Source: Candidatus Altiarchaeales archaeon ex4484_2 (GTDB lineage Archaea > Altiarchaeota > Altiarchaeia > IMC4 > QMZM01). Taken from it: a stretch of DNA of 58,645 nt. The position numbers and the translations under genes are program-made. Location: the NCBI GenBank assembly GCA_002254565.1, contig NJEG01000001.1, positions 1-58,645 on the forward strand. Reading direction: 5' to 3'. Under the pieces are notes generated by a model. The model was not told where the DNA came from and ran no database searches. It saw only the letters and a list, made by a program, of their open reading frames with translations. Shown here piece after piece: positions 6,522 through 48,486 of the stretch (within the stretch, counting starts at the first letter, position 1; each line of letters starts with the position of its first letter).

Positions 6522-8075
6522 TCACTCCTCTTCCTTGAGTTCTCCTATGATCTTTTTGGGGTCGCCGTTTTTCTCCACCAAGCTAACCAATGAATCCTTG
6601 TCTAAATAGAAACTGTTCATTATAGCACCCATCTCCTCAATCTTTCGGGTATTATTTTTGACCAGCCATTCAAGGATGTTCTTTTTGGTGTCAAGGTCCT
6701 CGTTTATTTCCTCTGATGTGAAGCCGGTGTTTCTCTCAATCCTCTCGAACAGGGTTATATCCTCTGTATTCCGGTCGTAGGTCACATCTATAGTATCCTC
6801 CCGGGAATTCCATCTATAAAGTATGTGAGGTATATATCGGACCTCCCTCTTCGGCACCTCAGGGTCATGTATGAGCTCACCCATTTCATAAACCCTCCTG
6901 ATGCCCCGTCTCCTGTCCCTGAACATGACAACGTTAAGGTGGACGGCGTCCAGCATGCTCTCAGCTATATTAATGGGTGGGTTTATTAGCCGGGTTATGG
7001 TCTGCTCGCAGGTGTCCGCGTGCAATGTCCCATAAACAGAGTGTCCCGTGTGCATGGCCTCAAATAATACCTCCGCTTCTTTCTTTTTCCTGATCTCCCC
7101 CATAATAATCCGGTCAGGCCTCATCCGTAGGGAATTAACTACTAAATCAAGCATTGTAACCTCACCCTTGCCTTCAGGGTTCGGCTGTCTGGTGGTCAGA
7201 GGACACCAGTAAAGGAAGTGAGGCAACTGCAGCTCCCTGGTGTCCTCGATGGATATAATCCTGTGATTTGGCGGGATGAATGGCATGCACACGTTCAGGA
7301 AGGAGGTTTTACCTGAGCCAGTGCCCCCTGAGATAAGCATGTTCATCTCGTACTGTATCACCAGCCAAATCAGAGCCAGAACCTCAGAGCTGGCAGTCTT
7401 GTTCTTAATGAAATCAGCTGCAGTCCATGGGTCTCTGGCGAATTTTCTTATGGTAATGGTACTGCCTTTGCTTGCAATAGGCATTAATATGGCATTAGCC
7501 CTGTCCTTGCTCAAAAGATACGCGTCAAGCATTGGTTCAAGGTTTGATATCTCCCTCCCAACCCTCCTTGCAATAATACTGGCGTAATTAACAATCTCCG
7601 ACTCGGATTCAGAATAGAGGTTGGTTTTAATCCAACCGAAGCCCTTATGGTATATGCGTATAGGCTCTTTAGACGAGTTAATAACAATTTCTTCGATGTT
7701 AACATCATCCAGCAGGAATTCAATATCCCCCAAACCCAACAGGTCATGGACTAAAGTAATCATGAAGTGGTCGGTTATCCGCTCATCCAGCTGAGGCAGC
7801 TCCTCCTGTATAAGCACCTTGGCCTCGGACTTAAACTGCTCTTTAAGGCCTTCCATCATTTTAGGGTCAAAGAACTCACTCTTTGTCACCTCGATAGCGC
7901 CAATAAGTTTCTCCTTGATGTCGTCCAGCAAGGCCAGGGTAGCGATATCCACATCAGGGATGTTAAGCTTATAAAAGGGCATTAAATCTTTCTCAACTAC
8001 GTCGACTGCTACAGGAATACCCTCTGTTTCTATCTTATATCTTTTCAGAATTTTCTCCTCTCCTTCCCCTGTCAT
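6522..8075 (-). CDS. type II/IV secretion-family ATPase (archaeal FlaI/PilB/VirB11-like)
   Basis: 517 aa with Walker A LISGGTGSGKTSF, IISIEDTRELQL, RPDRIIMGEIR and HTGHSVYGTLHA. This is the standard motif set of GspE/FlaI-type hexameric ATPases. Confidence 0.85.
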   Translation of the reverse strand: MTGEGEEKILKRYKIETEGIPVAVDVVEKDLMPFYKLNIPDVDIATLALLDDIKEKLIGAIEVTKSEFFDPKMMEGLKEQFKSEAKVLIQEELPQLDERITDHFMITLVHDLLGLGDIEFLLDDVNIEEIVINSSKEPIRIYHKGFGWIKTNLYSESESEIVNYASIIARRVGREISNLEPMLDAYLLSKDRANAILMPIASKGSTITIRKFARDPWTAADFIKNKTASSEVLALIWLVIQYEMNMLISGGTGSGKTSFLNVCMPFIPPNHRIISIEDTRELQLPHFLYWCPLTTRQPNPEGKGEVTMLDLVVNSLRMRPDRIIMGEIRKKKEAEVLFEAMHTGHSVYGTLHADTCEQTITRLINPPINIAESMLDAVHLNVVMFRDRRRGIRRVYEMGELIHDPEVPKREVRYIPHILYRWNSREDTIDVTYDRNTEDITLFERIERNTGFTSEEINEDLDTKKNILEWLVKNNTRKIEEMGAIMNSFYLDKDSLVSLVEKNGDPKKIIGELKEEE

Positions 8076-12773: not shown

Positions 12774-13964
12774 TTATCTCATTTTTTTCCTGGCCGCTAT
12801 CTCAGAGGGTAGACCCCACAGTTTCACGAACCCCTCAGCCAGCCTGTGGTCGAAACGGTCGCCTCTGTCGTATGTGGCCAAACCCAGATCATAAAGTGAG
12901 TTAGGGGATTCCCTCCCGGTGACATAAACATTACCTTTATAGAGTTTCATCCTTAGTTTCCCAGAGACAACACGCTGGGATTCATTGATGAACGCCTCCA
13001 GGTCACTTTTTAGGGGCTCATGCCATTGCCCAAAGTAGACCATCTGGCTCCATCTGGAGTCGACTATCTCCTTGAACAGGTTCTCCTCCCGGCTAAGGGT
13101 CAGCTTCTCCAAATCAGAGTGAGCCTTCAGGATTATGGATGCTGCAGGACACTCATAGACTTCTCTTGACTTAATCCCCACCAACCGGTCTTCAACAGTA
13201 TCTATGCGCCCAATACCATGTTTTCCACCCAACCGGTTAAGCTCCTTAATCAACCCCACCCCGCTCCTCTCTTCACCGTTCAATGCTGACGGAATCCCTT
13301 CATTAAACTCCAGTTCAATATATTCCGGCTTATCTGGTGCCTTCTCTGGAGACGTGGTCCAAGAGTAAACCTCCTCCCCGGGCTCGTTAGCCAAGTCCTC
13401 CAGCGGGCCGGCTTCAACACTCCTCCCCCACAGGTTCACATCAATACTGTAGGGGCTTTTCTTCTTTACGGGTACGGGTATATCGTGTTTTCTGGCGTAG
13501 TCTACAGCCTCGTCTCGGGTTAAATCCCACTCCCTGGCCGGCGCGATAATATCCAATTCAGGATTCAATGCCCTCACAGCCAGCTCGAACCGGACCTGAT
13601 CGTTGCCTTTACCGGTTGAGCCATGGGCTACCGCATCAGCTTTCTCTTTTTCTGCAATCTCCACAAGGTATTTGCTTATAAGAGGTCTTGCCAGGGCAGT
13701 GGATAACGGATACACTTTCTCATAGAAGCCGTTTGCCTTGATGGATGGATTGATGAACTCATTAACGAACTCTTCTCTGGCATCGATGCTGTAGGTTTCT
13801 ACGGCACCAAGCTCTCTTGCTTTTTCCTCAATCTGTTCCAGATCGGATTCCTCCTGCCCAACCTCCAGCGTCAGGGAAACAACCTCTGCCCGGTATTCCT
13901 CCATAAGCCACCTGATGCATATGGATGTGTCCAGCCCCCCAGAGTATGCGAGAACAACCTTCAT
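12774..13964 (-). CDS. argG: argininosuccinate synthase
   Basis: 396 aa with the N-terminal PP-loop AYSGGLDTS and full-length family resemblance. Confidence 0.95.
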   Translation of the reverse strand: MKVVLAYSGGLDTSICIRWLMEEYRAEVVSLTLEVGQEESDLEQIEEKARELGAVETYSIDAREEFVNEFINPSIKANGFYEKVYPLSTALARPLISKYLVEIAEKEKADAVAHGSTGKGNDQVRFELAVRALNPELDIIAPAREWDLTRDEAVDYARKHDIPVPVKKKSPYSIDVNLWGRSVEAGPLEDLANEPGEEVYSWTTSPEKAPDKPEYIELEFNEGIPSALNGEERSGVGLIKELNRLGGKHGIGRIDTVEDRLVGIKSREVYECPAASIILKAHSDLEKLTLSREENLFKEIVDSRWSQMVYFGQWHEPLKSDLEAFINESQRVVSGKLRMKLYKGNVYVTGRESPNSLYDLGLATYDRGDRFDHRLAEGFVKLWGLPSEIAARKKMR

Positions 13965-18274: not shown

Positions 18275-20836
18275 CTATGGAGCCATCGGCGGATTCGCCG
18301 GCTTAAGAGCAGGGCATATCTCCTCGCTTAGTGTTTGGGAATCAGGACAATCACAGACCATGTCTGGTTTCGGGCAGTCTCCGATTACATAATGCTGGCA
18401 GCAGCACTCCATGTTGCTCCAGCTCCACTGCAGGGCGTAGGCGTACCTGCAGACGTACTGGCAGTTGCCCGGCCCAACATCGGGTGAAGTGCATGAGTCC
18501 TTGTTAAGGTATTCCCCTGTAAGCCACCCTGAGCCAGTGCAATGGCTTGAACAGTCTATCGGCGTCTCATCACATGCATCAGGTATACCGTCACCGTCTG
18601 CATCAAGGTTGTCATCGAAGCCAGGGCAGGTATCTAATCCATCTATAACGCCGTCGCCGTCAGAGTCCTGTGCAACACACACACAGTTCCCCCAGTTGCA
18701 GCTGTATCCGCCATCACATTCTATTGTCTCACCCTCCCAAAGAAAGTTGTCTCCGACCTTGACCCTGTAACGCCATGCATCACATTCCTCACCGTCATCT
18801 ATTCTACCATCCCCGCAGCCAACGCATTTACAGTTTATACACTCCAGGTCGTCCGGGCAGGGATACTCTTTCGCCCCACTCCAGTTGTTGTACGGACCCG
18901 TGTTGGGGTCACATTCTTCATCTCCTCCTCCGGGAGTCCACGGATGCGAGAGATAACCGTCACCGCATCTGGGTGTTATAACCGGCCCCTGAGTTGTAGA
19001 AGCGGATGTAGAGGTTGTTGTATATGTTGTTTCCGTGATAGTGGTGGATGTCGACGTGGATGTGGTATATGTTGTTGTAGAGGTTGATGTTAGTGTCGTA
19101 GAGCTTGTGGTGGTTGTCACCTCAACCGTCTCGTGCTCTATTATCATGTCCTCATCAACATGAGGTGTTGACGGCACATGGGAGCTTAAGAGGACGTCAA
19201 CCCCCTGGTAGATGTCTCCCGGCAGAGTTAAGCTCAATATCACTTTACCAGAATCCAGAGCCAGAATATCCAAGTAACCCTTCCCGGCTGATGTGCAGGG
19301 CATAAGAGCAAGACCTGAGGAGACCTGTTTTATTATGTTAACATATCCCCTGTTCCGGCTCGTTGAGGGAATCAGGGCAGTATTGTCTCCCACCATTATC
19401 TGGACATCCACATCCTCTCTTAAATCCCCGGTAAGGGCTAGGGTGTCCCTTACCTGGCCAGAGCATACGTATATGACATCAACGTATCCCTGGTTGTTCT
19501 TGTGGGAGGGGATCAACACAGTTTTCTCATTCTTTGTGAGCAGCACGTCAACGCTCTCCTCTAGATCCCCTGAGAGGGCTGTCCGGGATGATATACCCCT
19601 ATTGACCAAATCTATTATATTTAGATAACCCTGCGCCCCTATATGAGAGGGTATCAAACCTGTTTTCCCGTCGGATGACATCAGGAGATCAGCTCCCTCC
19701 TGTAGGTCGCCGCTCAAGGTTACAGTAGATGTTTTTTTCCCGGTTGAGAGGTCTATGAAGTCGACAAACCCCTGAGTCTTTTTATGGGATGGCATGTATG
19801 CAGTCATACCATCTAGCGAAATCCTGACGTCTATGTATTCCTGCAATGTCCCCGATAGATTGACGTTATAGAGCACCTTACCTGATAAGTAATCGATTAC
19901 GTTCAGGTATCCCTGTCCCGGGTCTGTGGTCGGCAAAAGCACCAGATTCATGTCTTCCACCAGTAGAGGGTCCACGTCCAGTTGAAGGACTCCTGGCACA
20001 CCAAGAGTCTTGGATATGACCTTGTTTTGTAAATCCAGTAGGTCCACGGAGCTTCCCTGGCCGTATGTTGAGGGCACAACAGCCGTCTGGCCATCTGATG
20101 TTACTACGAGATCAACCCCCCCCTTCAGGTCGTTTTTTAGGTTGTATTTCTTAACAGCCTTGTTTGTTGAGAGGTCTATCTGATCCAGGAATCCCTGAGT
20201 CAGGGATTCAATCCGGGTGGGGATGAGGGCTGTTTTCTCATCAGGTGTTAAGACGACATCCACATCAAAGTCCAGGTCTCCTGTAAGCGGTACGCTACTC
20301 TTTGATCCGGAGGATAGGTCTATTACCTCCAGGATTCCCTGCCTGTTGAAGTATTCCCTGATAGGTACCAAAACAGTGCTGCTGTCTCCTGTAACAACGG
20401 GGTCTACGCCAGACCTTAAGTCACCAGATAATGTGATTGTTTTATCTATCTTTTCCCCGAGGATATCTATGACATCAAGGTAGCTTCCCCCGAATGTTGT
20501 TCTGGAGGCAATCAAGGCTTTCTTTTTGTCAGGGGTCTGGATGACGTCCACGTCAGACCTCAGGTTTCCGCTTAACATCACCGCATTGGAGGTTATCTTC
20601 CGGGCCAGAGAGGAGATTGTTGTTGTAGACAAGGAGGTGGATGTTGCAGTAGATGCTGTGGTTATTGTTGTCGTGGAGGTTGCGGTTGAAGCAGTTGCCT
20701 GGGTTGTGGAGGATACTGCTGTGGTGGAGCTAGCATTCCCTTTCGGGAGTGATGGGATGCATCCACTAAACAGCAAAAGTGAAGTAATCAGCGAAGCAAG
20801 AAATATAGACACTAATCTGTGATTTATGGAGTCCAT
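18275..20836 (-). CDS. large secreted repeat protein: lipobox-like signal, S/T linkers, about 10 beta-propeller-type repeats, Cys-rich CGDG..EECD repeats and thrombospondin-type-3-like Asp repeats
   Basis: 853 aa. The signal ends LLFSGC. There are about 10 repeats of about 47 aa (LSGDLxxxVDVxxTxDxKTALIPSxxxxQGYLDVIDL). Two S/T tracts are present. The C-terminal region carries RCGDGYL...GDEECD, GCGDGRIDDGEECD, DSDGDGVIDGLDTCPGFDDNLDADGDGIPDACD and many further Cys. Confidence 0.75.
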   Translation of the reverse strand: MDSINHRLVSIFLASLITSLLLFSGCIPSLPKGNASSTTAVSSTTQATASTATSTTTITTASTATSTSLSTTTISSLARKITSNAVMLSGNLRSDVDVIQTPDKKKALIASRTTFGGSYLDVIDILGEKIDKTITLSGDLRSGVDPVVTGDSSTVLVPIREYFNRQGILEVIDLSSGSKSSVPLTGDLDFDVDVVLTPDEKTALIPTRIESLTQGFLDQIDLSTNKAVKKYNLKNDLKGGVDLVVTSDGQTAVVPSTYGQGSSVDLLDLQNKVISKTLGVPGVLQLDVDPLLVEDMNLVLLPTTDPGQGYLNVIDYLSGKVLYNVNLSGTLQEYIDVRISLDGMTAYMPSHKKTQGFVDFIDLSTGKKTSTVTLSGDLQEGADLLMSSDGKTGLIPSHIGAQGYLNIIDLVNRGISSRTALSGDLEESVDVLLTKNEKTVLIPSHKNNQGYVDVIYVCSGQVRDTLALTGDLREDVDVQIMVGDNTALIPSTSRNRGYVNIIKQVSSGLALMPCTSAGKGYLDILALDSGKVILSLTLPGDIYQGVDVLLSSHVPSTPHVDEDMIIEHETVEVTTTTSSTTLTSTSTTTYTTSTSTSTTITETTYTTTSTSASTTQGPVITPRCGDGYLSHPWTPGGGDEECDPNTGPYNNWSGAKEYPCPDDLECINCKCVGCGDGRIDDGEECDAWRYRVKVGDNFLWEGETIECDGGYSCNWGNCVCVAQDSDGDGVIDGLDTCPGFDDNLDADGDGIPDACDETPIDCSSHCTGSGWLTGEYLNKDSCTSPDVGPGNCQYVCRYAYALQWSWSNMECCCQHYVIGDCPKPDMVCDCPDSQTLSEEICPALKPANPPMAP

Positions 20837-26202: not shown

Positions 26203-26269
26203 AATATTGATTTAAAACATATTTGATAGAAATGATTTTATAGTCGGATTGATAATTATTTAATCAAGG

Positions 26270-27964
26270 ATGTTAACCAAAGATAACAGAAGTGCGACAG
26301 GCAACCCCATGTTGGATCAATTACTGGGCGGAGGATTCCCCAACGGAGCAGTTATCCTGTTAGCCGGAGCCTCAGGCACCGGCAAAACCGTATTGTCTTT
26401 CGAGTGGCTGTTCAACGGCGTCGGGATGTTTGATGAAAACGGCATATACATCACCTTCACGGAGCCTTTATTTAAGACACTGAAGAACCTGGAGGGCCTG
26501 GAGTACTATAGCCAGGAGGCTGTGGAGTCTGAGAGAGTTAAGATACTGGATATGAGGAAAAGCTTTGGGGAGGCGGGTTTAGATGGAGGCAGGATCCTTG
26601 ATTTGATCGAGGAAGAGGTTAAAAAAAACGACGCCCGGAGATTGATCGTTGACTCCATAACCGCTATAGCGTATAATCTGGAGAATAAGGCCAGAATCAG
26701 GAAATTCATCTTTGATCTGGGGACGATGCTTGCATCGTTGGGGTGCACGACGGTATTAACGAGCGAGGTGATTGGGAAGGGCTATTCCGTCTACGGTGTC
26801 GAGGAATTTATTTCTGACGGCATCATCCAGCTCAGGCAGAGAGATATAAACTTTCAGTTAACAAGAACCCTTAAGATCGTTAAGATGAGGGGGGTAGAGT
26901 ATGCGCCGCATGAGAACAGCTTCAGAATAACATCATCGGGCATAAAGATATTCCCTCAACTGAGCATCCCCCTCAAATATGCTTCCGGTACGGAGAAGGT
27001 CTCCATAGGGGTTAAAGGCTTCGATGATATGACCAGGGGAGGGGTCTTCAGGGGATCAAGTAACCTGGTCGCCGGAGCCAGCGGAACAGGGAAATCCATT
27101 ACCGGACTGCATTTTATCGCGGAGGGGCTTAGATTGGGTGAGCCGTGCCTGCTGGCAGGGTTTGAGGAGTCAAGGGATCAGATAATACGGAATGCTGGGG
27201 GGTTTGGCTGGGATTTTGAGGAGTATGAAAATAAGGGTCTTTTGAAGATCATGTGCTCTTATCCCTCAGAGAAATACATTGACGAGCATCTGCTTGACAT
27301 AAGGGATAGGGTGGAGTATATGGAGGTTAAGCGGGTTGTGGTAGACAGCCTCTCATCTATCGGGAACGCATTTGATGATGGGGAATTCAGGCGTTTTGTT
27401 AAATTACTCAACGGTTACCTTAAATCTAGAGAGGTTACCTCAGTCTTCACAACCGCTACTGCTACACTTATGAGTGTGGAGACATTGACTGACGCTCATC
27501 TCTCAACGATGACGGACAACATCCTCCTTCTGAAGTATGTTGAGTTGGGTGGCGAGGTAAATCTCATGACGTCTGTTCTGAAGACGAGGGGAGATGATCA
27601 TAGCAAAAGCCTGAGGAGGTATAGCATAACAGGCAGAGGTATTGTTGTCGGGGAATCCTTCAGAGGCTATGAGGGTGTTTTATCCGGGTCAGCGAGAAAG
27701 ATTTCTGCAACCGTTCTTGAGCAGGTCAGGCAGGAGTTCAGGGATAATATAGGGCCTATGGGGGAGATAGAGTTTAACAGGATGAGAGATGAGGGTAGCA
27801 TAAACCCGGAGGGTATAGCGAAGTATGTGAGCTTTCTGGTGGCTGAGGGCATAATTGATTCAGAGAAGGGTGAGATATTTAAGAGGAAGATGGAGAGTAT
27901 TTTTGGAGGTGGTGTTTTATCACCTACAGGCAAAGTCGCCGACAGTGAGCTGACAAGAAAGTAA
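26270..27964 (+). CDS. two-domain KaiC-like RecA-superfamily ATPase with C-terminal extension
   Basis: 564 aa with two P-loops (LLAGASGTGKTV; LVAGASGTGKSI), two Walker B strands (RLIVDSITAI; RVVVDSLSSI) and EE in the second domain (GFEESRDQ). About 90 extra C-terminal residues are present. Confidence 0.85.
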   Translation: MLTKDNRSATGNPMLDQLLGGGFPNGAVILLAGASGTGKTVLSFEWLFNGVGMFDENGIYITFTEPLFKTLKNLEGLEYYSQEAVESERVKILDMRKSFGEAGLDGGRILDLIEEEVKKNDARRLIVDSITAIAYNLENKARIRKFIFDLGTMLASLGCTTVLTSEVIGKGYSVYGVEEFISDGIIQLRQRDINFQLTRTLKIVKMRGVEYAPHENSFRITSSGIKIFPQLSIPLKYASGTEKVSIGVKGFDDMTRGGVFRGSSNLVAGASGTGKSITGLHFIAEGLRLGEPCLLAGFEESRDQIIRNAGGFGWDFEEYENKGLLKIMCSYPSEKYIDEHLLDIRDRVEYMEVKRVVVDSLSSIGNAFDDGEFRRFVKLLNGYLKSREVTSVFTTATATLMSVETLTDAHLSTMTDNILLLKYVELGGEVNLMTSVLKTRGDDHSKSLRRYSITGRGIVVGESFRGYEGVLSGSARKISATVLEQVRQEFRDNIGPMGEIEFNRMRDEGSINPEGIAKYVSFLVAEGIIDSEKGEIFKRKMESIFGGGVLSPTGKVADSELTRK

Positions 27965-27973
27965 ATAAAAAAA

Positions 27974-29308
27974 TTGATGAAAATGAAAATCAAAACCACA
28001 ATAATCCTGGTCTTTATAATAGCGCTTATAATTGCATCGATCAGTGGTCTATACCCTTTTTATCTGAATGCAAAGGCTGTTTTAAAGGAACAGACATACA
28101 ATCACCTGGAGTCTGTTGCAGAATCAAGGGCAGCACATGTGAGGTCGTTTTTGAGGGATGTATGTGAGAGTACCCGGGTGCCGTCAACAAGCGTGGTTTT
28201 CATGGAATTTTTAACCACAGATAAGGACCATGAGAGTTATGCTAAGAAATTTGAGATGGTTAATAAAAGACTAAAGCAGATTAAAGAAAATTTCGATGAA
28301 TTCGATGATGTTTGCCTCCTCGACGGAAACGGCATTATCGTCGTTTCCTCAAACAGTGCATTTGTTGGTAAAAACAGGTCGACAGACCCTTATTTTATTG
28401 AGGGGATGAAGGGCGCATATATGTCTGACATGTATCTCTCAAAGGTTACCGGAAAGCCAGGGTTTGTTGTCGCCTACCCCATACTCTCAGATAGAGGGGA
28501 GAGTCTGGGGGTTCTGGTTGGGAGAATTGATGCATACGCCTTAAATAATGTCGTAGCAGACAGATCCGGTCTTGGGGAAACAGGGGAAACATATCTGATA
28601 ACAGTAGATGGCTATAGGATAACGGCTTCAAGGTTTGTGAACGACACCTTCCTGAAACAGAGGATCAATACAACTGGGTCACGGGGGTGTTGGGAGCTAT
28701 TCGACGAGGAAGAGGGGATAACTATCTATGAAAATTACCGGGGGGAGGTAGTTCTCGGGACTCATCGTAGAATTGAGGAGATGAATTGGTGTTTGCTGGC
28801 GGAAATCAGTGAGGAGGAGGTGTTGGGTGCTCAGAGAACACACTTGTTTAATGTTTTCCTGCTCAGCGTATTCATTATCATAATCTGTGTGATCCTGTTC
28901 AGTTTCCTTATCTCGAGATTAATCTCAAAGCCCCTCGAAAAACTGACGGAAACCATAGAAGACATCAGCCGAGGTAAGCTGGATGTCAAGGTGGAGGGTA
29001 AGGAACGAAACGATGAAATAGGGGATCTGGCGCGGGCGTTTGACCGGACCCTGGTGAGCCTGAAGCTGGCGATGAAGCAGACGGCTCCGGCAATGAAGAA
29101 GGAGATGGATGAGCTCAAGAAAGCAATCGAGGAGAAGAATAAGGCGGAGAAGGAGCTGAAGAAACAGAACATCGAGTTAATTAAATCACAGATAGAGCTT
29201 GATAGTATGGCGAAGCAAATGGAAGATAAAAACTATTATCTGGAGGAAACCAGGGGAGAGCTTAAAAGACAAATAAAGGCTCTTCAACACAGGGATACGA
29301 AAAAATAA
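27974..29308 (+). CDS. membrane receptor: Cache-like periplasmic domain + HAMP + coiled coil, no recognisable output domain
   Basis: 444 aa. TM1 (IILVFIIALIIASISGLY), an extracytoplasmic region of about 260 aa with Cache-like features, then TM2. The HAMP is SKPLEKLTETIEDISRGKL...NDEIGDLARAFDRTLVSL, followed by an 80-aa charged coiled coil. The track start is TTG 27974; an ATG is at 27977. Confidence 0.7.
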   Translation: MMKMKIKTTIILVFIIALIIASISGLYPFYLNAKAVLKEQTYNHLESVAESRAAHVRSFLRDVCESTRVPSTSVVFMEFLTTDKDHESYAKKFEMVNKRLKQIKENFDEFDDVCLLDGNGIIVVSSNSAFVGKNRSTDPYFIEGMKGAYMSDMYLSKVTGKPGFVVAYPILSDRGESLGVLVGRIDAYALNNVVADRSGLGETGETYLITVDGYRITASRFVNDTFLKQRINTTGSRGCWELFDEEEGITIYENYRGEVVLGTHRRIEEMNWCLLAEISEEEVLGAQRTHLFNVFLLSVFIIIICVILFSFLISRLISKPLEKLTETIEDISRGKLDVKVEGKERNDEIGDLARAFDRTLVSLKLAMKQTAPAMKKEMDELKKAIEEKNKAEKELKKQNIELIKSQIELDSMAKQMEDKNYYLEETRGELKRQIKALQHRDTKK

Positions 29309-29327
29309 ATGAGGGGGATATCATACA

Positions 29328-30295
29328 ATGGGTATTGATGTTGGAGTAGGGAAAAGCGAAAACGAGAACATCCTTAAGGCAGGGTCTGAAGCAGCAGGGG
29401 ATGCATTAAAGAAACTAGGTCAAGACGCTGATGTATTAATAGCGTTCGGCGCCCCATCATACAACCAGCAGGAGCTGCTTGACGGGATAACAAATACTTC
29501 AGGGGAAACGCCCTTAATCGGAGGAACAACCGCAAGAGAGATATCCACCCTCGGACTGAGTATTAACTCGGTTGTTGTGGCGGCCCTCTCCCTGGGTGGG
29601 ATGGATTTTGGTGTTGGAGCCGGCAGAAACATTTCAGGCGGGGAGGAGAAGATAGGGGAGATGCTTGCATCCGGCCTGCTTGAAGAAATCAGTGGAGAGA
29701 ACGCCAAATCTTTGATGGTTTTTCCGGACGGGCTTGCCGGAGACGGGTTAAAGATTGTTAGAGGCTGCCAGAATGTTCGGGGAGATGACTTTGAGATGAT
29801 TGGCGGGGCATTGGGTGATGAACAGATTTCAGGAAGATGTTCCAGTACTACAACAGAGTGAGGTGGTTCAGGAAATATTCGGTAAAGAGACTCCAGTGAT
29901 CGGATTCTACACCCACGGAGAGATCGGACCAATCGACAAGACACATCAGGAGTTGAAGGCAGCGAGAGGGCATAACCAAACGGTTGGGGTATACGGGTTG
30001 AAGGCGAAGGGATTGGAGGAAAAGAGACAGGATGATGATACATACTAAAAACAGGTTGATTGTCGGGGTTTTAGCAGCTGCTTTGCTGAAACCATTGATG
30101 AGTTAAGAGAAGATGTTGTCCCGGAAGCGGTTGCGATGGCGGAGATGGATGCTGCGACCGAAGAGATGGATCATGGAACGAAACGATGAGGTAGGGGAAC
30201 TTGCAGGGGCGTTTGACCGGACCTTGGTGAGCCTAAAGCATGCATCGCCCGAACTCAAAAAAGAGAGCAATAGCTACGAAACAGAAGATGAGTGA
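29328..30295 (+). pseudogene. decayed FIST-TM-HAMP sensor gene (internal deletion plus frameshifts)
   Basis: Frame 0 gives a FIST_N-like region (29328 to about 29825, ...PLIGGTTA...MIGGALGDEQ). The +1 frame then gives only the tail of FIST_C (PVIGFYTHGEIGPID...HNQTVGVYGL) up to the stop at 30048. A TM-end remnant (LIVGVLAAALLKPL) follows. The HAMP remnant is split across two frames (ETIDELREDV... / ERNDEVGELAGAFDRTLVSLK). Confidence 0.65.
30175..30239 (+). repeat. 65-nt HAMP-coding segment duplicated from 29002-29066
   Basis: Hand alignment of 29002-29066 against 30175-30239 gives 57 of 65 identical positions with no gaps. Confidence 0.85.
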
Positions 30296-30878
30296 CCTGC
30301 ATGTAGGGGAAACCAATGTAACGGAATTACTGAAAGAAGAGTTAGGTAGACGGGAGGAGAATTATGTTGCAATACTCCAGGTGCCGGAGGAAAAATACCT
30401 CCAAGTAAACCTGGAGACGATTAAGACGCTGGTGGAGGAATTTGGCTACTCAGGATTATACATAACAATACAGCGGCCCCACACTAACCTCATGAAGCTG
30501 TTTAGGAAACAAGGCATAAATGCAGACAAGGTATGTTTCATTGATGCAGCATCCTCGGCGGCAGAGGAAACCGGTGAGGAGACAGAAAACTGCACATATG
30601 TCCCAAAGGAACTGAACATAAACGACCTGACGCGGGCAACCTACAGGATGCTGCCAGACATTAAGGGAGAGAAAAAATTCCTGTTCCTGGACTCCATAAC
30701 AACACTCATGCTATACCAGCCCCTGTCGGAGACACTGAGGTTTGCGGAATTCCTGACAAGAACGCTACGGAAAACAGACCTCTCGGCAATCATCATGAAC
30801 GTCGGAAGCGAATTCTCCAAGGAAAACTTTATTAAAGACATAGTCTTCCAATGCGACGAAATCATAGAAATCAGGTGA
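30288..30878 (+). CDS. KaiC/DUF835-like domain protein lacking a P-loop (paralogue 1)
   Basis: 196 aa from ATG 30288 (the track ORF starts at 30240). The RecA-like strand order is retained (GLYITIQRP...CFIDAAS...KKFLFLDSITTLMLY...SAIIMNV...CDEIIEI). The Walker A position reads AILQVPEEKYLQ. Confidence 0.55.
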   Translation: MSDLHVGETNVTELLKEELGRREENYVAILQVPEEKYLQVNLETIKTLVEEFGYSGLYITIQRPHTNLMKLFRKQGINADKVCFIDAASSAAEETGEETENCTYVPKELNINDLTRATYRMLPDIKGEKKFLFLDSITTLMLYQPLSETLRFAEFLTRTLRKTDLSAIIMNVGSEFSKENFIKDIVFQCDEIIEIR

Positions 30879-30879
30879 A

Positions 30880-31446
30880 ATGAGAGATACTGCAGGTAAA
30901 CTGGAGGATGAACTAACTGACGTGCTGGCTGGAGAAATCATTCTGTTAGAGACCAAGCCGGAAGAGACACTGGATACAACCCTAAGCTCCCTGAAAACCC
31001 TGACCTCAGGCGAATCACCGGGCATAATACTGACATCCACAAGACCCTACTCTAAACTCATTAAATTATGCAGGGAAAACAACATAAACACAGAACACCT
31101 ATCCTTTATCGACACAATCATGATGTCTGTGGGAGTCCCTGAAAAGAATGCCGAAGAGACCACAGCAGTGATATACGTGAGCAGCACATCTGCGCTAACA
31201 GAGATATCACTTGCTCTGGACAAGAAATGCTCCAACCTCGGGGAGGGAGGATTCCTTTTCATAGACTCGCTGACAACCCTGCTCATACACAACAGCCCAG
31301 TAGCCCTGACCCGTTTCATACATTATACCCTAACCCGGCTGAGGGTGAGGGATATGGGGGCTCTGCTGACGACAATGGAGGAGGGGATAGATAGTAAAAC
31401 AAGGGCTGAGATAGTTACCCTCTGCGATAAAACAGTAATTCTCTGA
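30880..31446 (+). CDS. KaiC/DUF835-like domain protein lacking a P-loop (paralogue 2)
   Basis: 188 aa, collinear with the preceding gene (GIILTSTRP...SFIDTI...GGFLFIDSLTTLLIH...GALLTTM...CDKTVIL). The Walker A position reads ILLETKPEETLD. It starts 1 nt after the upstream stop. Confidence 0.55.
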   Translation: MRDTAGKLEDELTDVLAGEIILLETKPEETLDTTLSSLKTLTSGESPGIILTSTRPYSKLIKLCRENNINTEHLSFIDTIMMSVGVPEKNAEETTAVIYVSSTSALTEISLALDKKCSNLGEGGFLFIDSLTTLLIHNSPVALTRFIHYTLTRLRVRDMGALLTTMEEGIDSKTRAEIVTLCDKTVIL

Positions 31447-41072: not shown

Positions 41073-42152
41073 TTATTCCCGCAGCAGCCTCACATTCCGG
41101 CTTCTACCCCGTTTGCCCTTAGGGTATTCAGTCTCTATAAGTTTCTTGCTTTCCAGCTCCTTTATAAGCTGGTTGTATCTCTTTATCCCTGAACCGGTTT
41201 CCTCCCTGAAGAGCTCGTAGATTCTGCCTGAAGACCTGTTATCGTTTACCTCTACGATTTGGAGAAGCTTTTTTCCCCCTGATGAGAGCTTCCCCCCTCG
41301 GGCCTTAGGCGATGATATCTTCGAGAACACCTCCATGAGGTGCTCCTCAGTTATACTCCTGGATGAATCATTTTCCGCTAAGAGAGCGCTTCTCCGCAAT
41401 AAATCAATGCCAAAGCGAAGATCTCCTTTCTTGTGGGTGAAGTCCACGACAGACTCTAGAATCTCCTCCGGAACAACATCCCTGTAGAACCCATACCTGA
41501 CCCTGTATTCGAGGATGTCTCTAATCTCTTCCCGGCAGTAGGGTCGGAAATGGATGAGGGATGGGTTGAACACACTCCTGGCCTTCTCACTTAACTGTGC
41601 TATGTGCTCCTTTTCTATCATAATCCCTATGACACCAACCCGATCGAAGTCGTAGCTTACGTGGGCCTTCAAAAGGTCAATCAAAACAGCCTCCACGTTC
41701 TTGTTCAAAAAAAGCCGGTCTAGCTCATCTAATGCCACGACAAGACTCCTATCCTCCTTTTTTAGTCTGCCGTATACTCTCTCTTTCACATCCTCAAGAG
41801 GTTTACCTGTGCTGGGGGGAGGGAACCCATAAAGAGATTCATATATTTTTGCGAATATGGCATAGGGTGTGGAATAGTCCTCGCAGTTGATGTAGACTGT
41901 AGCTAGCTTGCCACTGGATTCCTTGATCTGCTGGAAGAGGTATCTCACAGCTGTTGTTTTCCCTGTGCCAGCCGGGCCGTGGATGAGAGTATTCACCGGA
42001 TTCACCCCCCTTAACCCCGGCTTGAGAGAAAAAGCCAGCTCCTTTGTTTCACTGTCCCTGTGCATGAAGTCTGCAGGGATGTGGTTTGGGGTGAAGATCG
42101 TCTCGTCCCGGAATAGTGTCTCTTCACTTAGAAGAATGTCTTTGATTTCCAT
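41073..42152 (-). CDS. cdc6: Orc1/Cdc6 replication initiator
   Basis: 359 aa with an AAA+ domain (HGPAGTGKTT; Walker B VVALDELD) and a C-terminal winged helix. Confidence 0.9.
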   Translation of the reverse strand: MEIKDILLSEETLFRDETIFTPNHIPADFMHRDSETKELAFSLKPGLRGVNPVNTLIHGPAGTGKTTAVRYLFQQIKESSGKLATVYINCEDYSTPYAIFAKIYESLYGFPPPSTGKPLEDVKERVYGRLKKEDRSLVVALDELDRLFLNKNVEAVLIDLLKAHVSYDFDRVGVIGIMIEKEHIAQLSEKARSVFNPSLIHFRPYCREEIRDILEYRVRYGFYRDVVPEEILESVVDFTHKKGDLRFGIDLLRRSALLAENDSSRSITEEHLMEVFSKISSPKARGGKLSSGGKKLLQIVEVNDNRSSGRIYELFREETGSGIKRYNQLIKELESKKLIETEYPKGKRGRSRNVRLLRE

Positions 42153-42155
42153 ATT

Positions 42156-42344
42156 CTATCTGTTAATAGAATAAGGAATAAAAGAAAAAAATACTGGTTC
42201 CTTGCTTCTCTGATCTAGTTTCACCGTCTTGGGTCTGAAGCCCATGTTCCTGTGGACGTATTCTTTTTCTGTTACTCCCAGGTATTCCCATATGTCTCGT
42301 CCTTTAGGTATCTTTGGGCATTCAGCTACTTTTGGGTATATCAT
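42156..42344 (-). CDS. small ORF (62 aa) immediately upstream of orc1/cdc6; may be spurious
   Basis: Its stop is 3 nt from the cdc6 start. No motif recognised. It occupies what could instead be origin or promoter DNA. Confidence 0.25.
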   Translation of the reverse strand: MIYPKVAECPKIPKGRDIWEYLGVTEKEYVHRNMGFRPKTVKLDQRSKEPVFFSFIPYSINR

Positions 42345-42528
42345 TTCTTGTACCTCCCCCAGTTAGTATCTGGGATTATCTTTATCCCAGGTGCGTTAAA
42401 TAAGGGTTGTCCTAGAGTGCGGGGGAAAAGTAACACCCACCCCCTCGCTATCTCAATATAGCGCAATATATATCGCGCAGAACAGATATAAATACCTGAC
42501 TATATAGATTATCTATGAGCTATATAGA
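42345..42528. other. repeat-rich, partly AT-rich intergenic region upstream of orc1/cdc6 (candidate origin/regulatory DNA)
   Basis: It contains a hairpin ctgggat-N7-atcccag (42370-42390) and a near-palindrome gcgcaatatatatcgcgc (42461-42478). A direct repeat ctatatagatNatcta occurs at 42500-42515 and 42520-42535. Confidence 0.3.
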
Positions 42529-46894: not shown

Positions 46895-47596
46895 TTATAT
46901 TATCAGCTCCCCCAGCACTGCCACGCCTTCACCTTGTCTTATGTCGACTGAGAATTTGTCCATCTTGTGCCTCACACCCCTCATCTTTTTCACCTGAAGG
47001 TATCGCTTGACCTTGTTTTCTATTTCAACCGTTCCAAGCTCTATTATCCCGTCGCAGAGGAATTCCTCTGAACCAAGGAGGAGGTTTTCTATGGTTTTCT
47101 CCGTAATCACTTCCGCAGCAATAAAGGTTGTTGCCCCCAATGCCCTCAGTTTCTCAAAAAAGAAGTAGAGTTCACTTCTGTCCTTGACTGTATCTATGAG
47201 AGTGTAAAGCGCGTTAAGGGAGTCTATAGCCACACAAGTGAAACTGCTCCCAATCTGCTTGTGGTATTTGGACATGGAATCAATAACCCATTCGAATTCC
47301 AGGTTGCTCTGGCCTTGTATGCTGCCCAGCTTCCTGGTGTAGTTGTAGTCTATGACGTCGATGGAATTGGGTTTATCCAATCCCATGCTCTTGAGATTCA
47401 TCAGGTGCCGTTCCTTGTTTTCCTCCAGCGTAATATATATGCCCTTGGAGTCCGTCTGCAGGGTATAGCTTGACAGAGCCGTGAACATGAACGTTGATTT
47501 AAAGCTCCCAGGGGTTCCCCTGACAAGAATAATCGACGACTTCGGCTCCTCGTTCTCCATTATCTGCTCAAAACCCGGTATTGAACTCCTCAGCAT
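46895..47596 (-). CDS. single-domain KaiC-like ATPase with atypical P-loop
   Basis: 233 aa. The P-loop is GTPGSFKST (Phe replaces the usual Gly before Lys). LEENKERH and Walker B strand FTCVAIDSLNAL are present, and the C-terminus LQVKKMRGVRH is typical of KaiC/RadA-like proteins. Confidence 0.7.
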   Translation of the reverse strand: MLRSSIPGFEQIMENEEPKSSIILVRGTPGSFKSTFMFTALSSYTLQTDSKGIYITLEENKERHLMNLKSMGLDKPNSIDVIDYNYTRKLGSIQGQSNLEFEWVIDSMSKYHKQIGSSFTCVAIDSLNALYTLIDTVKDRSELYFFFEKLRALGATTFIAAEVITEKTIENLLLGSEEFLCDGIIELGTVEIENKVKRYLQVKKMRGVRHKMDKFSVDIRQGEGVAVLGELII

Positions 47597-47598
47597 TT

Positions 47599-48486
47599 TT
47601 ACACCTCATCTCCTGTTTCCACCAAATGCACCTCCCTTTCCAGGAGTTTCTTTTGGTTCTCATTTAGTATATAGGGATTAACGGATATTATAAGTATGCA
47701 GTTACTGACCCTGATTTTATCCGTAAGCCGTTCCATAAAAAACAATGTTCTCTCGAAGCTGTTGTGTTCTATCAGGTAGTCGAGCCCCCCTATATATATG
47801 ACTCCCTTACCGCTTCTCTTTGTGAACTCCCCGGTCTCCTCGTCCTTCCTGAATTCCATGTCCCCGCTTTTCTTTATAAAATCCTCTATGACCTGAAGCA
47901 TCTTCTCAAGCTCGGGACCGAGAGACATGGTGTCTTTCGGTGAGGTCTCAGTAAGCCAGATACAGGGGGTCTTCTTCAGCCTGAGTTTTTCCCTCACATC
48001 AAGTGGACATATCCTGGAAAGTAAAAGCCCTTCATATCCCTTAGCTAGAGAGTGCATGAACATGTTAATCCCCTTATCGAATTCCTCCTCCATTATGAGA
48101 TAGGTTTGGCCTCCCCCTGCCCTGAAGGCTTCACCACTCACCACAATATTGCTTTCCATGGCAGGGGTGATAGCCGGGAAACCCTTCTCCCGTTTTATGG
48201 TAAACGATGCGGCAACCAGAAATACTGTGAACACCGGAATCAACTCGACCTTGATGAGTTCCAGCATAAAAGGTTCGTACATGAAATCCTTCACCAGCCT
48301 AACAACACAGAGTATGAACGCGGTCATCATGGCCAGCAGTATATAGAGCCATGTGTACGACTCCATCCTGGTCCAGTAATAGCACTTATAGCTTATCAGG
48401 ACTGCTGTGATGAAACCTATCACTGAAACACACTTTAACGCTATTACTATGTTTGAAAGAGTTATTACTTCAACCACCTTCCCCAC
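47599..48486 (-). CDS. membrane protein with cytoplasmic DUF835 domain
   Basis: 295 aa with about 4 TM helices, then YLIMEEEFDKG...GLLLSRICP...PCIWLTE...VIYIGGLDYLIEHNSFERTLFFMERLTD...ILIISVNP. The track start is GTG 48486; a GTG at 48477 has a better SD spacing. Confidence 0.65.
   Translation of the reverse strand: MGKVVEVITLSNIVIALKCVSVIGFITAVLISYKCYYWTRMESYTWLYILLAMMTAFILCVVRLVKDFMYEPFMLELIKVELIPVFTVFLVAASFTIKREKGFPAITPAMESNIVVSGEAFRAGGGQTYLIMEEEFDKGINMFMHSLAKGYEGLLLSRICPLDVREKLRLKKTPCIWLTETSPKDTMSLGPELEKMLQVIEDFIKKSGDMEFRKDEETGEFTKRSGKGVIYIGGLDYLIEHNSFERTLFFMERLTDKIRVSNCILIISVNPYILNENQKKLLEREVHLVETGDEV

Follow-up and report, generated by a model that had tools for sequence, protein, structure and literature searches.

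How does a membrane receptor pass on its signal when nothing resembling an output module follows its HAMP domain? The question is raised by a locus at positions 26270-31446 of a 58,645-nt stretch of forward-strand DNA from Candidatus Altiarchaeales archaeon ex4484_2 (assembly GCA_002254565.1, contig NJEG01000001.1; the whole stretch is called the window in the following). The locus contains a KaiC-like ATPase, a receptor with Cache and HAMP domains, the remains of a further gene with FIST and HAMP parts, and two small KaiC-like proteins without a P-loop, denoted small1 and small2 or, as inactivated KaiC domains (iKaiC), iKaiC-A and iKaiC-B. We propose that the window probably holds one copy of a conserved archaeal sensory cassette, made up of a KaiC autokinase, one or more HAMP receptors, iKaiC-A and usually iKaiC-B, which acts by the mechanism set out below. 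The parts of the window copy are the following (aa, amino acids; TM, transmembrane; ORF, open reading frame).

26203-26269, + strand: AT-rich, divergent intergenic region before KaiC, the putative promoter of the cassette
26270-27964, + strand: KaiC, 564 aa, from the ORF list and Pfam/NCBIfam
27713-27964, + strand: C-terminal extension of KaiC, about aa 482-564, with a core of about 60 aa defined by alignment
27974-29308, + strand: receptor, 444 aa, with TM1, dCache_1, TM2, HAMP and a helical tail
28082-28792, + strand: extracellular dCache_1 domain of the receptor (Pfam, E = 1.7e-20)
28907-29062, + strand: HAMP domain of the receptor (Pfam, E = 1.4e-13)
29063-29305, + strand: helical tail of the receptor, i.e. 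a linker and ~35 residues from the start of a PAS domain, from orthologue alignment
29328-30295, + strand: in the simplest reading a decayed second receptor gene, with remnants of FIST_N, the FIST_C tail, TM and HAMP in differing frames
30288-30878, + strand: iKaiC-A (small1), 196 aa, start placed by orthologues; the ORF opens at 30240 (212 aa)
30880-31446, + strand: iKaiC-B (small2), 188 aa, DUF7504, beginning 1 nt after small1

An earlier note on this DNA had described five same-strand elements with gaps of 9, 19 and 1 nt, and the ORF list confirms this layout over 26270-31446. The identities that it had given to the elements (KaiC, Cache-TM-HAMP receptor, decayed FIST-TM-HAMP gene and two P-loop-less proteins) are upheld by the profile searches. 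The gap of 9 nt after KaiC is obtained if the receptor uses a TTG start; a gene caller run on an identical contig starts the receptor at 27983. The FIST ORF (29328-29861, 177 aa) lies 19 nt past the receptor stop; after it, short and overlapping ORFs (29800-30048 and 30113-30295) lie in other frames. The start of small1 is most likely at 30288 (MSDL...), as in its orthologues, where it overlaps the stop of the remnant ORF in the type of junction that is also found in the related locus L001. Upstream of the cassette, a TATA-like TTTTATAG was read from the sequence by eye about 26-33 nt before the ATG of KaiC, in the putative promoter region. An independently assembled contig of 64.8 kb is 100% identical over 8534 nt, frameshifts included, hence the frameshifts of the FIST remnant are real and not an assembly error.

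The KaiC protein is intact and has two domains, as claimed before: PF06745 matches it twice (2.2e-95, 318.9 bits) and PRK09302 reaches 425.5 bits, above its cut-off of 408. The Walker A motif is intact in both domains (GASGTGKT and GASGTGKS). When aligned to 7dy1 and 4o0m, the CII domain keeps the EE pair and the T/S/T phosphosites TLTDAHLSTMTD, equivalent to T426/S431/T432, and in CI one of the two glutamates is left (TFTE). The KaiC of T. elongatus aligns with the window protein from end to end (E=1e-112). Judged by these sequence features, the protein looks like a two-domain ATPase and Ser/Thr autokinase. Its C-terminal extension has the core motif LGPxGExEF...GII..EKG..FK..I..IFG and is kept in all six complete C-termini of HAMP-linked KaiC proteins that were aligned, and is partly kept in two fragments at contig edges; the single aligned KaiC without it has a HAMP-less multi-TM protein as its neighbour. 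The extension has no Pfam match and, used alone as a query, no PDB sequence match.

In the receptor, no domain was found besides dCache_1 and HAMP, and the histidine-kinase and phosphatase models that match it do so over the HAMP and TM regions alone. A domain scan of about 25 receptors of the family gave the same picture. Some have no sensor, and in the others HAMP is combined with dCache_1, dCache_3, MASE3 or an unassigned periplasmic region; HAMP is followed by 0-2 PAS domains and sometimes GAF. HisKA, HATPase, MCPsignal (PF00015), GGDEF, EAL, HD-GYP or any other output domain is absent from all of them. In other words, the absence of a conventional output, which the earlier note had pointed out, holds for the window receptor and for the ~25 family receptors. 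The same note had assigned an 80-aa coiled coil to the end of the receptor, and this part did not stand, as the comparison with orthologues shows a truncated linker and the beginning of a PAS domain instead of a dedicated module.

It is conspicuous that the conservation of the receptors is concentrated at the end of HAMP. In all receptors the AS2 segment runs into a basic tail of the form [FL][DN]R.[LMIA][VT][ST][LM]K.A[MVI][KR][QRM], which reads AFDRTLVSLKLAMKQ in the window. The stretch GDLARAFDRT[LI]VSLKLAMKQTAP stays unchanged among the four closest relatives of the window receptor, down to an overall identity of 33%. Several receptors stop 8-30 residues past the tail motif. The smallest, in locus L013, consists of 134 aa, i.e. 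two TM helices, HAMP and 8 further residues, and those of L018 (423 aa), L020 (306 aa) and L015 (299 aa) also end soon after HAMP.

The two small proteins belong, by profile and by predicted structure, to the iKaiC superfamily, i.e. they have the RecA/KaiC fold and have lost the P-loop. The family profiles place small1 just above the threshold of PF06745 (26.8-27.1 bits, cut-off 26.6, a borderline match) and small2 more clearly within DUF7504 (34.5 bits, cut-off 27). The AlphaFold (AF2) model of small1 has a pLDDT of 86 and a pTM of 0.86, and its best PDB matches in Foldseek, all with probability 1.0, are PH0321, PH0186, PH0284, FlaH and KaiC. The model of small2 is weaker (pLDDT 62), with FlaH, KaiC and PH0284 as top matches. 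PDB sequence searches with the small1 and small2 profiles returned chance matches only. The hidden Markov models (HMMs) of the two families match each other at ~1e-20, therefore the two proteins are paralogues. Their homologues are solely uncharacterised proteins of ~190 aa, one of which, a small2 homologue, is labelled Altiarchaeales.

The loss of the nucleotide-binding site is evident in both families. The motif G/AxxxxGK[ST] does not occur at the beta1-alpha1 junction in any of 22 small1 and 6 small2 homologues, and the few matches to the pattern lie elsewhere. The P-loop position holds a conserved P-E, and in small1 strand beta1 passes straight into helix alpha1. At the position of the catalytic glutamates both proteins have RP, and the Walker B aspartate is retained in F(L/I)DS. 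The conserved motifs of small1 are RP, IDAASS, FLFLDSITTL and YQPLSETLRFAEFL. Both the fold that had been predicted from the sequence alone and the description of the pair as P-loop-less, KaiC/DUF835-like paralogues thus agree with the profile, model and cross-profile results. When 1.84 billion representative proteins were searched with a profile, 1811 relatives came up, of which 843 have E<1e-10; 148 relatives were scanned, and 110 of them matched KaiC, 81 DUF7504, 46 DUF7090 and 36 DUF835. Two fusions were seen in the wider iKaiC family: P0104 (339 aa) is a tandem iKaiC-iKaiC protein, and P0080 (456 aa) combines a KaiB-like domain, V4R and iKaiC.

The module is carried by about 29 distinct loci with differing flanks. 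The carriers are relatives of the window organism, probably Altiarchaeota-like, and DPANN metagenome-assembled genomes (MAGs) labelled Pace-, Woese-, Micr-, Aenigm-, Iain-, Undin- and Nanohaloarchaeota. As a rule KaiC comes first and is followed by one or two HAMP receptors, by iKaiC-A and usually by iKaiC-B. The order KaiC, HAMP receptor, small1, small2 is found in window/L102, L001, L003, L005, L011, L013, L015, L018 and L020. In L001, L003, L005 and L011 the receptor is of the dCache-HAMP-PAS type (with two PAS domains in L011); in L018 a dCache-HAMP protein without PAS, and in L020, L015 and L013 the short HAMP proteins mentioned above, lie between KaiC and the small1-small2 pair. The contigs of L019 and L021 break off within the receptor, which leaves KaiC out of view, and only the PAS tail is seen in L021; here too the receptor is followed by small1 and small2. 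In the first set, small2 follows small1 in 13 out of 13 loci.

A further genome scan, seeded with an alignment of the KaiC subfamily and evaluated with our own HMMs, gave 22 loci in GTDB species genomes, mostly of DPANN. Small1 lies downstream of KaiC in 19 out of 21 informative loci, and in 14 loci the two are separated by a HAMP receptor of the same type. Small2 follows small1 in most; four loci have KaiC, small1 and small2 without a receptor. The family had appeared to be very rare (3 loci in the GTDB species genomes and 2 in a metagenome collection), which was an artefact of exact-pattern seeding with small1; seeding with the KaiC alignment added ~20 cassette loci beyond the small1-seeded scans. 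The order is thus kept in ~29 loci of many archaeal lineages with unrelated flanks. As regards the five-gene arrangement described in the earlier note, the adjacency is conserved, but the conserved unit has four gene types and the FIST element is the remnant of a decayed second receptor in the simplest reading. From this co-occurrence we infer that the KaiC-fold neighbours would be the transducers of the receptor signal.

The loci also show a number of variations. Two receptors lie between KaiC and small1 in L114:2028-3979 (X-HAMP and TM-HAMP-GAF) and in L120:6607-9119 (dCache-HAMP-PAS and TM-HAMP), and in a Micrarchaeota MAG one complete cassette is followed by another (L111:1-6818). In a Pacearchaeota MAG a 283-aa multi-TM protein takes the place of the HAMP receptor. 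In L008 an ODP-family di-iron sensor (1.8e-60) lies directly upstream of small1-small2 (L008:1539-3488), and a hemerythrin-KaiC fusion with a third, convergent iKaiC paralogue is found 6 kb off (L008:8911-10926); these are soluble gas/redox sensors used with the same adaptor family. The sole iKaiC after the receptor in a Nanohaloarchaeota MAG (L119:5832-6554; DUF7504, 2e-08) has a weak MazE-antitoxin-like match at its C terminus (1e-04). In a MAG labelled Candidatus Magnetocorallium paracelense (L117:4977-8517) a member of the KaiC subfamily (46% identity) accompanies a MASE3-HAMP-GAF receptor without an iKaiC; this could be due to horizontal transfer or a binning error, or represent a different variant. 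Toxin-antitoxin-like genes (NTP_transf_2/HEPN-like, DUF2283) separate receptor and small1, or lie shortly before the sensor, in L015:1123-2009, L019:1266-3281 and L008:341-1519. The junction of receptor and small1, at which the FIST remnant of the window is also located, seems to be a recurrent insertion site.

In the mechanism that we propose, the physical contacts, the direction of the signal and the hand-over to a downstream target would be as follows. Binding of a ligand to the extracellular dCache domain would shift the conformation of HAMP. A hetero-oligomer of iKaiC-A and iKaiC-B would read the HAMP tail, in an adaptor role like that of CheW for chemoreceptors, and would dock on the KaiC hexamer, possibly via the C-terminal extension of KaiC. 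The docked adaptor would modulate the ATPase activity and the Ser/Thr autophosphorylation of KaiC, whose phosphorylation or oligomeric state would be the output handed to targets. Indirect support comes from the fusions P0104 and P0080, from the iKaiC domains that serve as response-regulator outputs, and from a second KaiC module in the window itself (46895-48486, - strand). The latter encodes a 295-aa protein with ~3 N-terminal TM helices and a C-terminal DUF835 domain (3.5e-23), i.e. the membrane part and the iKaiC are fused there, and, 2 nt after it, a single-domain KaiC (233 aa, PF06745 7e-34).

Several known systems resemble the cassette in part. Makarova, Galperin and Koonin reportedly proposed a KaiC-centred signalling network of archaea (in mBio, 2017), with DUF835 and MEDS among its iKaiC domains. 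The common points are a KaiC-family ATPase beside sensor domains and dead-site KaiC homologues, the use of iKaiC as a signalling module and, within the window, the pair of membrane-DUF835 protein and single-domain KaiC. Unlike in that network, the sensor, iKaiC and KaiC of the cassette each have a gene of their own, and the order of these genes is fixed; the sensor has the canonical dCache/TM/HAMP layout, the iKaiC is a stand-alone pair of ~190-aa paralogues, the KaiC has a family-specific extension, and it is mainly in MAGs of DPANN and Altiarchaeota-like archaea that the cassette occurs. Galperin et al. 2018 (PMC5847659) count inactivated KaiC domains (DUF835 and an iKaiC-REC fusion) among the output domains of response regulators. 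No description of a cassette of KaiC, HAMP receptor and iKaiC pair was found in the searchable full-text literature, a search in which the neighbourhoods of the 2017 mBio article were not compared.

The parallel to the chemotaxis system, i.e. methyl-accepting chemotaxis protein (MCP), CheW and CheA, consists in the dCache-TM-HAMP front end, in the proposed logic of receptor, non-catalytic adaptor and autokinase, in the interchangeable sensors on a constant core, and in the tandem receptor genes for one kinase. The cassette differs from it in having no MCPsignal domain, CheA, CheW or CheY; its kinase is a predicted RecA-fold Ser/Thr autokinase, and the adaptor is the dead paralogue of that kinase. 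With the KaiC proteins of cyanobacteria and Rhodobacter sphaeroides the window protein shares the two domains, the Walker motifs, the EE pair of CII, the phosphosite residues and the presence of a C-terminal extension. Unlike those systems, the cassette has no kaiA or kaiB, KaiC is accompanied by a receptor and iKaiCs, and the extension shows no detectable similarity in sequence to known structures. In structure, small1 and small2 come closest to ArlH/FlaH and the single-domain archaeal KaiC-like proteins PH0186, PH0284, SSO2452 and PH0321, which are single RecA-like domains of ~200-240 aa and act as regulatory partners of another ATPase. ArlH binds ATP and autophosphorylates, whereas small1 and small2 lack the P-loop and the catalytic glutamates. 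Finally, Elp4/5/6 and the rings of Rad51 paralogues are hetero-oligomers made of degenerate RecA-fold paralogues; Elp456 is among the Foldseek matches of small1, and two family members match Iki1. This last likeness is a structural analogy only, with no functional link.

The window copy has been remodelled: its first receptor has lost a PAS domain and its second receptor is decayed, while KaiC, the HAMP of the receptor and both iKaiC genes are intact. The closest orthologues of the receptor have a C-terminal PAS domain, which the window receptor, as far as the alignments tell, has lost. Its tail retains the invariant PAS residues N420 and G428 and then stops ~35 residues into PAS. In comparison to L001, ~380 nt of PAS-coding DNA are replaced by 1.14 kb (29165-30303), in which the new tail of the receptor, the FIST remnant and another HAMP AS2 copy are located. 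In the dCache segment (28132-28772) there is no DNA match to L001; dS (synonymous divergence) is ~1.55 there vs 0.3-0.6 in the flanking genes, and the amino acid identity is 44% vs ~85%. The high dS and the lack of a DNA match suggest that the sensor module was swapped by recombination, rather than merely evolving fast.

The FIST-TM-HAMP gene had been called decayed, in agreement with the profile pieces, which lie in three frames and are the same in the independent assembly. FIST_N (E = 4.6e-19, 29328-29861) covers 130 out of 189 profile positions and then stops. Of FIST_C the last 26 profile positions remain in another frame (~29854-29931). Three-frame translation shows TM and HAMP-AS1 remnants at ~30040-30175, between the FIST_C tail and a HAMP-AS2 copy in the third frame (30175-30239, within the ORF 30113-30295), which is 87.7% identical to the AS2 of the receptor itself and 81.5% identical to that of L001. 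Altogether the remnant has at least 3 frame disruptions as well as internal deletions. It is absent from L001, L003, L005 and L011; no intact FIST_N+FIST_C frame is present, and a search for a close intact homologue of the fragment recovered the fragment itself alone. We also considered an insertion that replaced the PAS domain and dropped this explanation, since the tandem receptors of L114 and L120 favour the decayed second receptor of a two-receptor cassette as the simplest reading. The remnant may nevertheless be composite, because a cytoplasmic FIST domain before a single TM helix is topologically odd.

Could the window copy as a whole be a decaying relic that has lost its signalling, with the coupling between receptor and iKaiC broken? 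The replacement of the PAS-coding segment by 1.14 kb without a counterpart in L001, the end of the receptor ~35 residues into PAS, and the several frame disruptions of the FIST/HAMP remnant, which are reproduced in the independent assembly, are in accordance with this idea. The selection estimates tell against it. KaiC, small1 and small2 are 84-86% identical to those of L001, and the ratios of nonsynonymous to synonymous divergence (dN/dS) against L001 are 0.16 for KaiC, 0.31 for the receptor (0.13 in TM2-HAMP), 0.19 for small1 and 0.21 for small2, i.e. all four intact genes are under purifying selection. Moreover, natural receptors of the family stop shortly after HAMP (L013, L018, L020 and L015), and the invariant motif of the HAMP tail is still present in the window receptor. 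We regard a relic as unlikely.

A second group of alternatives accepts the cassette as a unit and assigns it another function, or denies that it is one. The cassette might be a taxis-like regulator of a type IV pilus or archaellum, in which KaiC acts on a motor ATPase of the ArlI/T2SSE type as ArlH does. In L005, the genes immediately before the cassette encode T2SSE-T2SSF-T2SSF and a single-domain KaiC; pilin-like genes and one for a prepilin peptidase are found within 5 kb in L013, and in L006 there is a T2SSE gene at a distance of 7.6 kb. At least 8 loci have single-domain KaiC genes on the flanks of the cassette; in addition, the KaiC-like proteins ArlH and CirA regulate motility (PMC10983859), and the pilus clusters of Nanohaloarchaeota contain kaiC genes (PMC9563170). 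A general link was rejected, however: it is seen in three loci, but queries with T2SSE, T2SSF and prepilin peptidase did not find it in the ~20 DPANN loci, none of which has a T2SSE homologue within 5 kb. In the window, the cassette sits among housekeeping genes (FEN1, Csl4, S-adenosylhomocysteine hydrolase, an aconitase-family protein, CBS-HTH and HcyBio), 18 kb from the T2SSE homologue, and we consider this role unlikely. The homologue in question (6522-8075, - strand) is a T2SSE-type ATPase that matches the one directly preceding the L005 cassette with E=4.6e-160. Of the housekeeping genes, that of S-adenosylhomocysteine hydrolase has its best matches in Altiarchaeota MAGs (73% and 67% identity).

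The idea that KaiC is the core of a timer, be it an hourglass or a clock, with the receptor as its entraining input, draws on the end-to-end similarity to cyanobacterial KaiC and the conserved phosphosites. The KaiC of Rhodobacter is KaiA-independent and has a C-terminal extension; that of the window is also extended, and 8dba aligns to it up to residue 533. On the other hand, CI lacks one glutamate of the catalytic pair, the extension alone resembles no PDB chain detectably, and neither KaiA nor KaiB domains turned up in the cassette, in the related cassettes or in the Pfam-scanned ORFs of the window, a scan that covered, outside the cassette, ORFs of at least 150 aa from position 12774 onwards. 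A timer thus appears very unlikely. Chance adjacency or an anti-phage defence island is barely credible in the face of a gene order that is conserved in ~29 loci with unrelated flanks. Defence could be argued from the toxin-antitoxin genes that L008, L015 and L019 have within the cassette or next to it and from a weak PADLOC match of KaiC to mad8 (3e-07), but small1 and small2 have no PADLOC match, that of the receptor is a trivial TM match, and the receptors bear classic ligand-sensing domains.

Several observations weigh against the sensory cassette itself, as we propose it. There is no HAMP receptor between KaiC and small1-small2 in L012, L109, L115, L121 and L122, just one iKaiC is present in L107, L110, L112 and L123, and in L008 the ODP sensor precedes small1-small2 with no KaiC adjacent. 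Neither the receptor nor the iKaiC pair is therefore obligatory. The correlation between the KaiC extension and HAMP receptors is only a lead, with a single negative case. In the window, ~1 kb of pseudogene now lies between receptor and small1, and in comparison to its closest orthologues the receptor has been cut short, so this copy could be partly impaired. Taking both sides together, we still hold the sensory cassette of KaiC autokinase, HAMP receptor and iKaiC adaptors to be the probable explanation.

Two other regions of the window may be mentioned. An ORF of 853 aa (18275-20836, - strand) without a Pfam match at 1e-5 lies between the genes of argininosuccinate lyase and an XPD-like helicase. 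An Orc1/Cdc6 gene (41073-42152, - strand) is followed by an intergenic region of ~375 nt (42153-42528), which could contain a replication origin. An Rfam search of the window gave no match.

The proposal that KaiC-like ATPases are hubs of archaeal signalling has so far been largely untested, one reason being that it was drawn from diffuse genomic associations. The cassette, on the other hand, is a compact and recurrent module of 3-4 proteins in which both the input (dCache, PAS or GAF on a HAMP receptor) and the enzyme (KaiC with conserved phosphosites) can be recognised. Since the module is so compact and its smallest receptor has only 134 aa, the hub hypothesis becomes directly testable by reconstitution. 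If the proposal is true, it shows a target of HAMP signalling in receptors in which no kinase, MCP or cyclase module follows. More tentatively, and with more doubt than conviction on our side, a HAMP-only receptor, a dead-KaiC adaptor and a KaiC autokinase might form a self-contained class of prokaryotic transmembrane signalling, parallel in architecture to MCP-CheW-CheA with all parts of RecA fold, and might be the main route of environmental sensing in DPANN and Altiarchaeota-like archaea, which mostly have no two-component systems. The census of Galperin et al. covers four complete DPANN genomes and counts 0-1 histidine kinases and response regulators in them. As the cassette is mostly borne by DPANN genomes, where histidine kinases are this scarce, it may explain how these reduced and often host-dependent cells sense their surroundings.

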